NCBI GenBank assembly: GCA_021498095.1
Contig: JAIZWK010000001.1
Location: 3,930,001 to 3,962,000 of the forward strand
Direction of reading: 5' to 3'
DNA: 32,000 nt
From: Candidatus Harpocratesius repetitus
Lineage (GTDB): Archaea; Asgardarchaeota; Lokiarchaeia; Sigyniarchaeales; Promethearchaeaceae
A program made the translations under genes and the position numbers. The notes under the pieces were generated by a model. That model had not been told where the DNA came from. It made no database searches and saw only the letters and a list, made by a program, of their open reading frames with translations. The stretch's first letter is position 1. Every line of letters starts with the position of its first letter. Shown here in pieces: positions 27,801-32,000 of this stretch.

Positions 27801-28349
27801 TTATTGAAAGGAAGACTTCTTGTTTAAAACGTGTAATTCAACTAATTTATTGTTCAAATCAGTAAAAAGTTTCTCTAAATTTACGCCGGTTTTTGCCGAT
27901 GTCTCATAATAGCGAGCGTTCAACTGCTCAGCTAATGCTAATCCTTCTGATCTCGACACAACTCGTTCATCAGTTAAGTCGAGTTTATTTCCTACTAATA
28001 CACGTGGCACGTTAGGAACATATTGATCAGCTTCTTTTACCCAATTTTCAATATCAATAAAACTTTCCCGATCTGTAATATCAAACACGTATATTGTAGC
28101 AAAACTACCTTGATAAAATCCAGGACGGACAAATGCAAAGCTAGATTGACCGGCTAAGTCCCATATTTGTAGTCGACATACGGTGTTTTCATCATATCTT
28201 AACATTTTGATAGCAAAATTACTACCTATGGTCATTAAATAGTTAGCTTTGAACTTGTTTTCTGTATATTGAAGGACCATGGAGGTTTTACCGACTCCAC
28301 CATTTCCAAGTACACTTACTTTAAAAATGTATTCACGGACGTCGCGCAT
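27801..28349 (-). CDS. Rab-like small GTPase (Ras superfamily)
   Basis: G1 GNGGVGKTS, G2 YLMTIG, RLQIWDLAGQ, FYQGS, VFDIT, G4 NKLD, G5 ETSAK; no C-terminal Cys. Confidence 0.95.
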   Translation of the reverse strand: MRDVREYIFKVSVLGNGGVGKTSMVLQYTENKFKANYLMTIGSNFAIKMLRYDENTVCRLQIWDLAGQSSFAFVRPGFYQGSFATIYVFDITDRESFIDIENWVKEADQYVPNVPRVLVGNKLDLTDERVVSRSEGLALAEQLNARYYETSAKTGVNLEKLFTDLNNKLVELHVLNKKSSFQ

Positions 28350-28506: not shown

Positions 28507-29664
28507 TTAATGAATTGTCGAGTCTTCCTTAATGGTTTGTGCATCAAGAGTAATACCAGATGAAATTGTTGCATTAGGACCAATAATCGAATTACTGCGA
28601 ATTACACAATTATCTCCGATAGTGCAACCATCAGCTATAACAGATTGTTCGATTTGGACATTATTTCCAATTTTGCAATTATCCCAAATAACACTTCTTG
28701 AAATATGTGTATTTGATCCTATTTGACAATGGGAACCAATAACAGATAATTCGTGAATATAAGAATTATCACCAAAATGATTATCAGAACCGAAACACAC
28801 AAAGTTATCATGAGAAACAGTGGGTTTTTCATTATTTAGATACCAAATATGCTCATTTCCTTGTCTAGTACCATAAGGAGTGATTGGATAACCATAGAGT
28901 CTTAAAACATCCCAATTACTCCAAAGATATGTAGTAGGATTCCCCACATCAAGCCAATAATAGTTTCTTACGAAACCATAAAGTGAATAACGATGTTCAA
29001 GCAAATATGGAAAAACCTCTTTACCAAAGTCCATAAAATCAGAAGAATTAATTAATTTAAGAATATCATGTTTAAAACAGTAAATTCCAGTATTGATTAT
29101 CGGTAATGGATCTGAAGCTCCACCTGTAAGTGCAGAGAGATAGATTTCTTCACTGCTTGGTTTTTCTAAAAAGCGAATTATACGTGATTCGGAATCAAGA
29201 AGAGTATTTCCATATTTTGTTGCCATTTCTTCAATTCTTTTCATGCTAACTGTGGCTTGAGCATTCTTTTTTTCGTGAAATTCCATGAATTCGCGTATAG
29301 GTAAGTTTGTAACGATATCTGCCATGCTAACTACGAAATTATCCGTGTCGATAAGATGAGAGACTTTGCGAACTGCATCAGCAGTTCCTTTAGAATCCAC
29401 ATGAGGAACGAGTACTTCAAGACCAATTTCTGCAAGTCTTTTTGAATCCCACGTTGTTTGAATGAGGTTACGCAACTTATCTCCTAAATGCTTAACAACA
29501 ATAATAATTTTCTTTATCCCTGCATATCGCAAATGATCAATGGCATAATCTACCATTGGTTTATTTCCAACTGGAACCATTGGTTTACAAATTTTGGCGG
29601 TTAATGGATTTAAACGTGAACCCAACCCACCAGCTAAGATAACGGCACTCCAAGATTTAGTCAT
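28507..29664 (-). CDS. Sugar-1-phosphate nucleotidyltransferase with C-terminal left-handed beta-helix (mannose-1-P guanylyltransferase/GlgC-like family)
   Basis: ILAGGLGSRLNPLT, KPMVPVGNKP, GTADAV, FLEKP, INTGIY, DFGKEVFP, YWLDVG, hexapeptide repeats. ATG at 29664 with a GGAG SD. Confidence 0.9.
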   Translation of the reverse strand: MTKSWSAVILAGGLGSRLNPLTAKICKPMVPVGNKPMVDYAIDHLRYAGIKKIIIVVKHLGDKLRNLIQTTWDSKRLAEIGLEVLVPHVDSKGTADAVRKVSHLIDTDNFVVSMADIVTNLPIREFMEFHEKKNAQATVSMKRIEEMATKYGNTLLDSESRIIRFLEKPSSEEIYLSALTGGASDPLPIINTGIYCFKHDILKLINSSDFMDFGKEVFPYLLEHRYSLYGFVRNYYWLDVGNPTTYLWSNWDVLRLYGYPITPYGTRQGNEHIWYLNNEKPTVSHDNFVCFGSDNHFGDNSYIHELSVIGSHCQIGSNTHISRSVIWDNCKIGNNVQIEQSVIADGCTIGDNCVIRSNSIIGPNATISSGITLDAQTIKEDSTIH

Positions 29665-29740
29665 AATTATTAATCTCCATATTAACAAAAAATAATCAAG
29701 TGTCTCCATAACTTGACTATTTTAATCAAATTAAATCAAC

Positions 29741-31141
29741 TTAAATAATAGATTGTATAAATTCTTCTGCTTTTGCAATAAGTATTTCAGATTTTTCTGC
29801 ATTTAATCCTTCAGCTTCAAGTTCTACAGCATTGGCATGCATAGAAGGACAAATAGAAACCCATCCTAAATCTTTAAAAATTAATTTCATGCCAATAATA
29901 ATATCTTGATAATCAATATTTGCTTTTCCTTGGGTCTGAATTAATTCCCGTAAAGATTCTTTACAAGTAGACATATTTTCATAACTAGTACTTATTGATT
30001 TATATGAATGAATTGTACGAGGAAAAGAGCGAATTAAAGCAGAAAGGGGGATTTTTTCACGTGCCAATATTTCTAAGATCTTTAGAGTAGTATAAACACC
30101 ATCGCTGAACGGTCCATAATTTGGAAAATAGAATTTCATAGTATCAGCACCTCCAAAGATTCCGCGCTGTTCTCTTAGCTCACGTGATATTTCACCAGGA
30201 AAATTTCGGGTTTTAAGTAATGTGAAACCACCTAATTCTTGAGCAAATTCCCCAATAATTTTAGATGCAGTTTTTGTTGTAATAATTGGTTGTTCTTTAG
30301 TAGATGAAATAATGGGGTCATATTTCATAAAAAACATCATTAATTCTTCAAAAGTTAGTATTTTTCCTGTTTCATCGATATAAAGTGCACGGGATCCATC
30401 AGTATCTAGAATTACTCCTAAATCTGCTTGAGATGCCTTCACAATATTTACTGCACTTTTAATTGATCTTAGATTAGGATACATCTCTGCTGATTTCTGA
30501 TCATTTTCATAGGCATTTATAGCTATAACATCAACCTTAAGACTTGTTAAAATTCCAGGAAGGACAATAGATCCGGGACCATAAGAACAATCACAAACAA
30601 CGTGCATTTGTTTTTTATTTTTGAATAAGTTTTGATCAACGAGTTGTGGAATGGCTTTTCGATAAATATCTTGAGTATGGGGTATATCAGTAATAGCACC
30701 AACATCAAGTGGTTTTGCTCTATTAATTTTATTTTGTCTTAAATATTCATTAACACTATCAAGTTTTTTAATATCAAATTCTATTCCAGAAGAATCATAA
30801 AAACGAATTTGATTTTGCATTTTTCCTGTCGAAACAGAAGAAAAATAAGCGCCAGCTGAAGCACCAAATCTTCGGATAGAAAATTGAAGAACAGAGACAG
30901 GTGCTGAATGAAGATTTAAAATATCAACCCCAGAACTCATTAAACCACCAATAAATGCACGTTTAAGCATTCGATTATTATTTGAATATTCACGAGCAAT
31001 TACCGCAATTCCTTTTGAGCCTAAATATGTCCCGAAAGCTGCACCGATTTTAGCTGCAAGTTCTGGAGTTAAAATTTCATTACCAATTGCTTGAATTCGT
31101 CCCCGATTAATTATGTCTTTCAAATTTGTAATTTCGCTCAT
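29741..31141 (-). CDS. Alpha-D-phosphohexomutase (PMM/PGM)-like protein with degenerate catalytic motifs
   Basis: Family scaffold intact (LTPELAAKIGAAFGT, VVCDCSYGPGS, ADLGVILD, SDGVYTTLKILE), but TASHNP, DGDGDR, GEESG and RxSGTEP are all altered. Confidence 0.85.
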   Translation of the reverse strand: MSEITNLKDIINRGRIQAIGNEILTPELAAKIGAAFGTYLGSKGIAVIAREYSNNNRMLKRAFIGGLMSSGVDILNLHSAPVSVLQFSIRRFGASAGAYFSSVSTGKMQNQIRFYDSSGIEFDIKKLDSVNEYLRQNKINRAKPLDVGAITDIPHTQDIYRKAIPQLVDQNLFKNKKQMHVVCDCSYGPGSIVLPGILTSLKVDVIAINAYENDQKSAEMYPNLRSIKSAVNIVKASQADLGVILDTDGSRALYIDETGKILTFEELMMFFMKYDPIISSTKEQPIITTKTASKIIGEFAQELGGFTLLKTRNFPGEISRELREQRGIFGGADTMKFYFPNYGPFSDGVYTTLKILEILAREKIPLSALIRSFPRTIHSYKSISTSYENMSTCKESLRELIQTQGKANIDYQDIIIGMKLIFKDLGWVSICPSMHANAVELEAEGLNAEKSEILIAKAEEFIQSII

Positions 31142-31253
31142 TATGATATCACTTAGCACTAGATGGATTATAATTTATGTAACAATCTATATAATTATTA
31201 ATAGATATTCAGTCCCTTAAATGATTTTAATAATTAATCTTGATAATTGATTT

Positions 31254-32000
31254 CTATTTAAGTGATTCTAATAAGTGACTTACTTGATATTTAGCTTTTT
31301 GTGCCATGTCCCTCCATGTTAGAGTGAGATTTAGGTTTTGGGAGATAATTTCTGCATTTTTATCATAGATGGCAGGAATTAAAGAAATCAAAAATAACCA
31401 ATGGCATAATATATTAAAGCGATCTGCATTAAGCCATAGGATTTCTTGATATCGATTGAATTGTAGATAATTTTGAATTTCAGGATCGTTAAAGATTTTT
31501 GCTAATAAAGAATAGGATTTTGATACTCCATCCATAACACCTTTATTAAACCAATTTTGATGGACAATAAGTAGTTTAAGTAAATATAGAAGTTCAGAAA
31601 GATTAGAATCTTTTTCACAGATTTCTCCCATTACCCATTCCACAACATTCCCCAAGCGCCATTCTTCAAGCCAACTTCGACTTAAATTTTCAAAATCTTT
31701 ATTATAACGAATTTCTCCTAATCGATGAAGAGTAATCCAAGCGTAAAACAAGCCCCATTCTTCTATGTTTTTAGGTAAAAATGATTCTATAGCCTGCCAA
31801 TCATCTGATTTTAAGGAAATTCTTTTCAGTTCTTCTTTAAAATGGACAAAAAGATTCAATTCAGATTTCAAATGTTGTAAAAATTTCTCTAATTGCGCTA
31901 AAAGTTTAGTATTATCTATAGAAGAACTAAGAAATTTCCCAATTTCGCTCGAAAAAAGGTTGATTTGTTGAGAAATAGGATCATCCATAATATTAAAAGT
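31254..32000 (-). CDS. C-terminal part of a larger protein extending beyond the window; tentatively a large alpha-amylase-family glycoside hydrolase
   Basis: The frame stays open from the ATG at 31988 to the window edge. LQFNRYQEILWLNADRF and SRSWLEEWRLG resemble, from memory, the C-terminal region of large bacterial alpha-amylase-family proteins. Catalytic domain not visible. Confidence 0.5.
   Translation of the reverse strand, partial: TFNIMDDPISQQINLFSSEIGKFLSSSIDNTKLLAQLEKFLQHLKSELNLFVHFKEELKRISLKSDDWQAIESFLPKNIEEWGLFYAWITLHRLGEIRYNKDFENLSRSWLEEWRLGNVVEWVMGEICEKDSNLSELLYLLKLLIVHQNWFNKGVMDGVSKSYSLLAKIFNDPEIQNYLQFNRYQEILWLNADRFNILCHWLFLISLIPAIYDKNAEIISQNLNLTLTWRDMAQKAKYQVSHLLESLK

Follow-up and report, generated by a model that had tools for sequence, protein, structure and literature searches.

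In the Asgard archaeon Candidatus Harpocratesius repetitus, the gene of a sugar-1-phosphate nucleotidylyltransferase is preceded by that of a protein related to phosphoglucomutases and phosphomannomutases (PGM/PMM), hereafter the PGM-like protein, in which all four catalytic loops of these enzymes are altered. We consider it rather probable that this protein is a phosphohexomutase-fold pseudoenzyme that would serve as a non-catalytic subunit of the adjacent transferase, an enzyme putatively of the nucleoside diphosphate (NDP)-glucose type. The pair lies in a stretch of 32,000 nucleotides (the window; G000:C1:3930001-3962000, GC content about 31%) of a single-contig genome of 4.36 Mb, where a row of genes on the minus strand runs from a GH13-domain protein through the PGM-like protein and the transferase, composed of an NTP_transferase and a beta-helical LbH domain, to a Ras-family GTPase. 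A heteromeric complex of the two products, as had been proposed in a sequence-only reading of this DNA, is favored by their co-occurrence and conserved linkage across Asgard families, by a transferase insertion specific to partnered forms, and by a structure model that passes its controls.

Fold, former catalytic loops and conservation of the PGM-like protein

The two genes and the principal motifs of the PGM-like protein are located as follows.

29741..31141, minus strand: PGM-like (pseudo-mutase) gene, 466 aa from the ATG at 31141, from the list of open reading frames (ORFs), translation, Pfam and the fold model
28507..29664, minus strand: transferase gene, 385 aa, with its ATG as in orthologues; the database record begins MTKSW
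30956..30976, minus strand: NRMLKRA in domain I, corresponding to the clade signature SRM[LI]KRA; M58, K60 and R61 are invariant in 118 family members
30860..30877, minus strand: IRRFGA, just before the former phosphoserine loop; a motif specific to the stand-alone clade and the core of the surface predicted to contact the transferase
30824..30853, minus strand: former phosphoserine loop GAYFSSVSTG, aligned to GxxITASHNP (TASHNP replaced by SSVSTG)
30389..30406, minus strand: remodelled metal loop DTDGSR, aligned to DxDxDR (DGDADR in the structures)
30134..30154, minus strand: remodelled sugar loop GGADTMK, aligned to GGEENGG
29831..29851, minus strand: former phosphate-binding loop of domain IV, CPSMHAN, aligned to RxSGTEP (RASGTEP in the structures)

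Both ORFs were found as the sequence-only reading had described them, the PGM-like one at its full length of about 466 aa and separated from the transferase downstream by 76 bp when the transferase start at 29664 is taken. The transferase ORF also contains an upstream in-frame ATG at 29709 (28507-29709), and the PGM-like gene an alternative in-frame GTG at 31159 (ORF 29741-31159) that would add 6 residues; orthologues and the database record, which begins MSEIT, use the ATG at 31141.

The PGM-like protein aligns over its whole length in HMMER with the Thermococcales PGM/PMM structures 9du5 and 1wqa (E about 1e-48, 27-28% identity). Pfam matches domains I-III of PGM_PMM, with PGM_PMM_IV below threshold, and the NCBIfam Arch_GlmM model scores 211 bits against a cut-off of 439. 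An AlphaFold model built with 118 homologues (predicted local distance difference test, pLDDT, 90.7; predicted template-modelling score, pTM, 0.92) comprises all four domains including domain IV, and in Foldseek it matches 1wqa and 9du5 at E 1e-43 and a template-modelling (TM) score of 0.76-0.78 over about 465 columns. The protein is thus predicted to adopt the alpha-D-phosphohexomutase fold of three alpha/beta/alpha domains followed by a C-terminal TBP-like domain.

Within this scaffold the catalytic loops have been extensively rewritten. Re-translation returns exactly the altered loops that had been reported, and the HMMER alignment sets them opposite ITASHNP, DGDADR, GGEENGG and RASGTEP. 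At the nucleophile position of the phosphoserine loop stands Val, with Ser where His is expected, a Ser-His pair that is present in 30/30 active-like references. The metal loop has exchanged the third of its three Asp residues for Ser; the sugar loop, canonically G-E-x-(S/N)-G, has lost both Glu residues; and the phosphate loop has lost Arg, Gly, Thr and Glu of RxSGTEP. Near the N-terminus, IQAIGNE lies opposite VRGIANE of the solved enzymes. From these losses we regard the window's PGM-like protein, with some confidence, as catalytically dead.

The protein is far from a chance observation. At E<=1e-20 it has 318 homologues, each about 460 aa long, that make up a conserved family spread over Asgard genomes of the Loki, Thor, Hermod and Sigyn types; Lokiarchaeum ossiferum has an orthologue at 69% identity and Promethearchaeum syntrophicum one at 62%. 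Among 118 members, down to 39% identity, invariant columns number 37 and a further 66 reach 90% conservation or more, the least conserved part being domain IV. The nucleophile position is occupied by Gly in 100 members, Val in 9, Phe in 5 and Ser in 1, and the surrounding loop follows a motif of its own, G-x-Y-F-S-x-G-H, whose His has been lost in the window's subclade and whose conserved Ser, at loop position 5, lies two residues upstream of the nucleophile position. The metal loop reads D-x-D-G-S-R across the family, with D246 and R251 invariant and D248, G249 and S250 at least 90% conserved; the sugar loop reads (A/G)(A/S)DTxK, with K336 invariant and D333 and T334 at least 90% conserved; and the domain IV loop reads P-S-x-(H/Y)-R-N. 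These alignments show the former active-site loops turned into new family motifs, as opposed to random decay. The residues of DxDGSR and DTxK may be structural, may bind some ligand or may face the partner.

Purifying selection on the PGM-like gene is as strong as on the genome's active PGM. Against the closest genome, the PGM-like gene has a nonsynonymous divergence (dN) of 0.119, the active PGM paralogue one of 0.120 and the transferase one of 0.141; a true ratio to synonymous divergence (dS) is not computable with synonymous sites saturated (proportion of synonymous differences, pS, 0.70-0.83), so that the comparison of dN with the active paralogue is the informative one. The reading frame is unbroken in nearly all sampled genomes. 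The equal dN, the intact frame and the invariant motifs support the earlier proposal of selection on a non-catalytic role, with no sign of the relaxed selection that decay would entail.

The check for a separate active PGM that had accompanied that proposal has a positive outcome, the genome holding two further PGM-family genes with intact motifs. One product, of 482 aa, carries TASHNP, DGDADR, GGENCG and RKSGTTP; the other, divergent and of 598 aa (L003:304-2100, minus strand, or G000:C1 about 2161700-2163500), carries TASHN, DTDRDR, EESGGH and RPSGTGP. The gene of the latter adjoins that of a 300-aa protein with a GTPase P-loop. A fourth PGM_PMM_I match (L004) was discarded as a false match inside a beta-helix/PKD repeat protein.

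The partner transferase and the predicted complex

Two features of the transferase are central to what follows.

29611..29634, minus strand: AGGLGSRL nucleotide-binding signature; A11, G12, G13, G15, R17 and L18 are invariant in 116 orthologues
29101..29157, minus strand: insertion SSEEIYLSALTGGASDPLP, directly after the FLEKP sugar-phosphate motif; predicted docking element

By its motifs and Pfam matches (NTP_transferase, 155 bits; LbH_EIF2B, 74.5 bits; and the beta-helical Hexapep) the transferase is a sugar-1-phosphate nucleotidylyltransferase. AGGLGSRL, KP, MADIV, FLEKP and WLDVG are invariant in the 116 orthologues and the catalytic-type Asp residues are kept; the intactness first noted for GGLGSRL and KP extends to every motif expected of an active enzyme. 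The best NCBIfam match is glgC (TIGR02091) at 180.7 bits, under the cut-off of 424.9 and thus outside GlgC proper; glgD is also among the matches. In the same genome, which has seven NTP_transferase loci in total, the five other scored paralogues reach at most 88.7 bits with the glgC model, and RmlA, archaeal GlmU and ManC-type genes occur elsewhere, along with a weak GlgA-like synthase. Relatives in the PDB comprise GDP-mannose and UDP-glucose pyrophosphorylases, ADP-glucose pyrophosphorylase (AGPase), and the epsilon and gamma subunits of eIF2B. As a separate observation, the LbH domain in the C-terminal third scores above the Pfam cut-off for eIF2B-epsilon (74.5 vs 54 bits), and the solved epsilon and gamma subunits are matched at E 1e-27 to 1e-18, a likeness of possible relevance to the origin of those eukaryotic pseudo-enzymes in archaea.

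The distribution of the two genes was assessed in a sample of 300 Asgard genomes, in which transferase orthologues were counted at E<=1e-75. They are present in nine families (f1, 6/6 genomes; f2, 61/69; f3, 1/1; f4, 1/1; f6, 2/2; f7, 18/28; f20, 1/1; f24, 20/21; f27, 2/3), and none was detected in the 21 other sampled Asgard families (for example, 0/76 in f9). The stand-alone PGM-like gene was detected in these nine families as well and, with a single match, in f16 (G247). In six families (f1, f3, f6, f20, f24 and f27) the two genes are adjacent, and their arrangement varies among lineages.

f24, f27, f20 and f6: transferase then PGM-like gene, 20-180 bp apart, the order found in fusions of the two modules
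Window's genus, g3 and g4 (f1): PGM-like gene then transferase, the reverse of the fusion order
g2 of f1, and f3: convergent
f2: both genes on one strand, separated by 2-8 kb that hold one or two alpha-glucan genes
f7: pair mostly 13-22 kb apart

In an alignment of transferases, an insertion of 11-15 residues after FLEKP is confined to those with a separate PGM-like partner and absent from both fused forms and non-partner paralogues. The same element lies at the heart of the predicted complex. Three modelling runs scored 0.72, 0.61 and 0.56 (median 0.61), the best of 3 controls scoring 0.00; the runs share at least 91% of their contacts, and the pLDDT of the partners is at least 87. The calibration mark for this score was reached by 58/80 solved complexes and 2/110 mismatched pairs, a guide that is rough here, since custom alignments were used. 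PDB searches with either protein returned no similar solved complex, which makes recall from a known structure unlikely.

On the transferase side, the modelled interface is formed by the insertion (residues 170-188), residues 145-149 and R255/Y257; on the PGM-like side, by IRRFGA (residues 89-94, with contacts at 90-95), the domain-II helix 151-167 and R326. The PGM-like interface residues are more conserved than random sets (0.79 vs 0.66, P about 0.0008). In this arrangement, the IRRFGA surface of domains I-II together with R326 of domain III would clamp the insertion as well as the loop that precedes the Y-G motif for sugar binding, placing the partner on the catalytic domain at the rim of the sugar-1-phosphate pocket, from where it could modulate the activity, specificity or assembly of the transferase. 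Within the stand-alone clade, R90, R91 and G93 of IRRFGA are invariant and F92 and A94 at least 98% conserved; in fused forms the motif is variable. This pattern fits a docking surface that would replace a covalent link, as support rather than proof. A role as a sugar-phosphate sensor, which the sequence-only reading had also entertained, was not adopted, because the phosphate-binding and sugar loops are those most thoroughly lost; domain IV, moreover, is the least conserved.

Fused relatives and competing explanations

Searches among longer proteins and, exhaustively with HMMER, through 1.84 billion representatives retrieved many proteins of about 830 aa in which NTP_transferase, LbH and a PGM-like module are joined in one chain. 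Over 600 such fused loci occur in species-representative genomes; the best 80 matches to an actinobacterial query are all from Actinomycetota, and fused forms are also found in Thermoprotei and some Asgard families. The motif SRM[LI]KRA is common to the window protein and all PGM-like modules of the fusions, and absent from active PGMs. In a FastTree phylogeny of 140 sequences, rooted on active-like PGMs that include the genome's own, a transferase-associated PGM-like clade stands apart from the active-like PGMs (support 97) and divides into 31 stand-alone sequences (support 100), the window protein among them, and 75 fused or truncated ones (support 99). Motif, tree placement and linkage to an NTP_transferase+LbH gene all assign the window protein to this transferase-associated clade, as defined here. 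In a further set of proteins, of 550-715 aa (for example, P0271, P0279, P0283 and P0294), no more than 100-200 residues precede the PGM-like module; they cluster with the fused forms and may reflect gene calls cut short or a second type of architecture, a beta-helix plus PGM-like module that lacks the transferase domain.

The pair had been described as a split version of such fusions in reversed order. Fused relatives with non-canonical loops do exist, and the pair is their unfused counterpart with the order reversed; fission from a fused ancestor, a history the word split would imply, is not supported, the stand-alone clade being sister to the fused clade and not nested within it. The tree therefore leaves the direction, fission or fusion, open.

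Loop decay across the clade is mosaic. The Asgard fused form retains DSDADR and GGEESGG without TASHNP, and one stand-alone lineage retains TRSHN, its metal loop being lost. In 35/52 fused forms, Ser stands at the aligned nucleophile position, followed by Pro in place of His; the second metal-loop Asp is mostly lost and the third is mostly Glu. A claim that all fused forms are dead was withdrawn on account of this Ser. It is because of the mosaic that the term dead is applied here to the window's protein and is not extended to all fused proteins.

The closest known relatives of the pair are the fusions of KEGG type K16881, annotated as mannose-1-phosphate guanylyltransferase/phosphomannomutase, such as Streptomyces coelicolor SCO1388, which share with the window pair the same two modules, SRM[LI]KRA, non-canonical loops and membership of one PGM-like clade. 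They differ in being covalent with the transferase first, whereas the window has two genes with the PGM-like one leading, and IRRFGA, DxDGSR, DTxK and the post-FLEKP insertion belong to the stand-alone clade or its transferases. Most of these fusions keep Ser at the nucleophile position, followed by Pro, which renders their inactivity less certain. SCO1388 has been called "apparently bifunctional," with no mutant phenotype and a small contribution to GDP-mannose synthesis (PMC5982138). Beyond that remark, our literature search found no study of the PGM-like module, fused or stand-alone.

The genomic surroundings of the pair point toward alpha-glucan metabolism. In all 29 of the other loci of f1 and f2 with enough flanking sequence, the gene beside the PGM-like gene encodes a GH57 or a large GH13 protein, and the GH57 neighbors match 1,4-alpha-glucan branching-enzyme models at 430-510 bits. 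In f7, an orthologue of the GH13 gene flanks the pair in one genome, bringing to three the families (f1, f2 and f7) in which the pair lies beside GH57 or GH13 alpha-glucan genes. Given these neighbors, the most GlgC-like score in the genome and the presence of separate ManC, RmlA and GlmU genes, we read the transferase as a probable NDP-glucose pyrophosphorylase, for ADP- or UDP-glucose, that would feed the synthesis of a glycogen-type alpha-glucan, a reading favored over that of a GDP-mannose enzyme. In the f2 cluster of one genome (G204), a 419-aa protein (L045:2752-4011, plus strand) with a faint match to GalT (UDP-glucose--hexose-1-phosphate uridylyltransferase) is encoded two genes upstream of the transferase, beside an alpha/beta hydrolase, and may be another sugar-nucleotide enzyme.

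Several observations weigh against a docked, non-catalytic subunit of an NDP-glucose enzyme. Binding is argued from comparative genomics and one structure model, and the transferase side of the modelled interface is not above average in conservation (0.62 vs 0.67). The two genes are mostly 13-22 kb apart in f7, and in one f4 genome they lie on different contigs. Invariant DxDGSR and DTxK residues could mark a retained ligand site or catalytic site, and some basal stand-alone members retain Ser-His, one of them with all three Asp residues (DSDADR). As for the substrate, the nearest solved relative of the transferase is a GDP-mannose pyrophosphorylase and its glgC score is far under the curated cut-off. 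Finally, in f24, f27, f20 and f6 the surroundings of the pair, out to about 4-5 kb, showed no alpha-glucan gene, for which reason the glucan link may be lineage-specific.

Three other explanations draw on these points to differing extents. The PGM-like protein might be non-catalytic and yet have as its main partner the GH57/GH13 enzymes, glycogen or some other protein, the transferase being merely a neighbor in the pathway. The immediate neighbor is a GH57 or GH13 gene in 29/29 loci of f1 and f2, with the f2 transferase one or two genes further away, and proteins of this fold known to act by binding are found among the fold matches, namely GlmM, which regulates the CdaA cyclase, and the structural protein PGM5. 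We nevertheless hold this to be unlikely, in view of the covalent fusion of the homologous module to a transferase in the sister clade, the adjacency to the transferase in the four families where no glucan gene is near, the strict co-occurrence of the gene, at the level of families, with transferases of this type, and a complex model that holds up against its controls.

Next in rank, and likewise unlikely, is that the PGM-like protein is still an enzyme, either a mutase employing a different nucleophile (the conserved Ser that lies two residues upstream, for example) or the bearer of another phospho-sugar activity based on DxDGSR/DTxK that would supply or edit the transferase substrate; linkage would then reflect a pathway and not a complex. 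Such an activity would accord with the ordered nature of the loops (invariant D246, R251 and K336, near-invariant D248, G249, S250, D333 and T334), with the conserved Ser at loop position 5, with the basal stand-alone members that keep Ser-His or DSDADR, and with the fused forms (35/52) that keep Ser at the nucleophile position. It has to contend with the absence of the nucleophilic Ser and its His, of a metal ligand (one out of three), of the two Glu residues of the sugar loop and of Arg, Thr and Glu in the phosphate loop; with the weak conservation of domain IV, the holder of the substrate phosphate; with the two intact-motif PGM-family genes that the genome maintains; and with the partner-specific insertion and complex model, which indicate physical association. 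The third alternative, a functionless relic of a duplicated PGM gene drifting toward a pseudogene, would explain why every canonical motif is altered and why different lineages show different losses, but it is very improbable for a gene with an intact frame in nearly all sampled genomes, a dN equal to that of the active paralogue (dS being saturated), 37 invariant and 66 near-invariant columns in 118 sequences down to 39% identity, and a confident, well-folded model.

Neighboring genes, known systems and significance

Two genes flank the pair on the same strand.

31254..32000 and past the window end, minus strand: 3' part of the GH13 gene, upstream of the pair; full ORF L047:5255-8674:-
27801..28349, minus strand: Ras-family small GTPase gene, directly downstream of the transferase; Pfam Ras 169.7 bits

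The GH13 product is 1139 aa long, with a short Pfam Alpha-amylase match (residues 314-436) and weak NCBIfam MalA/TreS matches, most of the protein falling outside any family. Its orthologues (43-72% identity) adjoin the PGM-like gene in several genera of f1, f2 and f7. Further upstream, beyond the window and on the same strand, lies a gene for a 1072-aa protein with a weak UPF0182 match (L047:8727-11945, minus strand). On the other side, the same-strand gene directly after the pair encodes a small GTPase in two Asgard families that are distant from each other and arrange the pair in opposite orders. In the window's family (G000, G089 and G285) it is Ras-like and follows the transferase; in f24 (G259, G220, G253 and G136) it is Arf-like (318 aa; L046:5243-6199, minus strand) and follows the PGM-like gene. 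This recurrence may be due to chance, as Asgard genomes are rich in such GTPases.

The proposed arrangement has parallels among known systems. GMPPA, an inactive paralogue of the catalytic subunit GMPPB that senses product, was invoked in the sequence-only reading as the model, and the analogy holds loosely: in both cases an active NTP-transferase+LbH enzyme has an inactive, conserved partner, and GMPPB (7d72) is among the solved relatives of the window transferase. It breaks down in that the window partner is no paralogue of the catalytic subunit, having the fold of a PGM, the enzyme one step upstream, and not that of an NTP-transferase, and in that the context is glucose and alpha-glucan, not mannose. 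Closer in pathway are GlgC/GlgD of Firmicutes and the small and large AGPase subunits of plants, the latter among the PDB matches of the window transferase; these are NDP-glucose pyrophosphorylases of storage-glucan synthesis with a non- or weakly catalytic modulatory subunit. There too, unlike here, the modulatory subunits are paralogous to the catalytic one, and the window transferase is not GlgC proper. CipG, a recently described cyanobacterial partner of GlgC, is a pentapeptide-repeat protein unrelated to the PGM-like protein.

From the side of the mutase fold, the active archaeal enzymes of Pyrococcus horikoshii (PH0923, 1wqa) and Thermococcus kodakarensis (9du5) are the closest solved structures by both sequence and fold; they differ in the four catalytic loops, lack the added clade motifs and are separate on the tree. 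GlmM acting on CdaA and vertebrate PGM5, a cytoskeleton-associated paralogue of eukaryotes, both found among the fold matches, illustrate a PGM fold that acts through protein contacts; GlmM is, however, still an active enzyme, and neither partners a nucleotidyltransferase.

Non-catalytic partners are a recurring means of control at the committed step of sugar-nucleotide and storage-glucan synthesis, and those known to us (GMPPA, GlgD and the plant AGPase large subunit) are all paralogues of the catalytic subunit. The window's partner would instead stem from the enzyme that acts one step earlier in the pathway: if the reading is true, the second subunit is a dead copy of an upstream enzyme, a form of pseudoenzyme regulation not previously described for this enzyme class. 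The fused and separate forms would then constitute a natural experiment on the exchange of a covalent link for a docking insertion. On a wider reading, which we advance tentatively as a possibility, the whole "bifunctional ManC/ManB" class, that is, the fused proteins of about 830 aa from Actinomycetota, Thermoprotei, Asgard archaea and others together with the stand-alone Asgard form, would be misannotated in its mutase half, an ancestral PGM module having become a non-catalytic regulatory or assembly module and, in Asgard archaea, part of a heteromeric NDP-glucose supply. For the stand-alone Asgard family, the phosphomannomutase or bifunctional annotation is very probably wrong, and metabolic reconstructions relying on that label would be misled. 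Archaeal glycogen metabolism and its regulation have been described as largely unexplored (PMC11046441), and the lineage concerned, the Asgard archaea, comprises the closest known relatives of eukaryotes.

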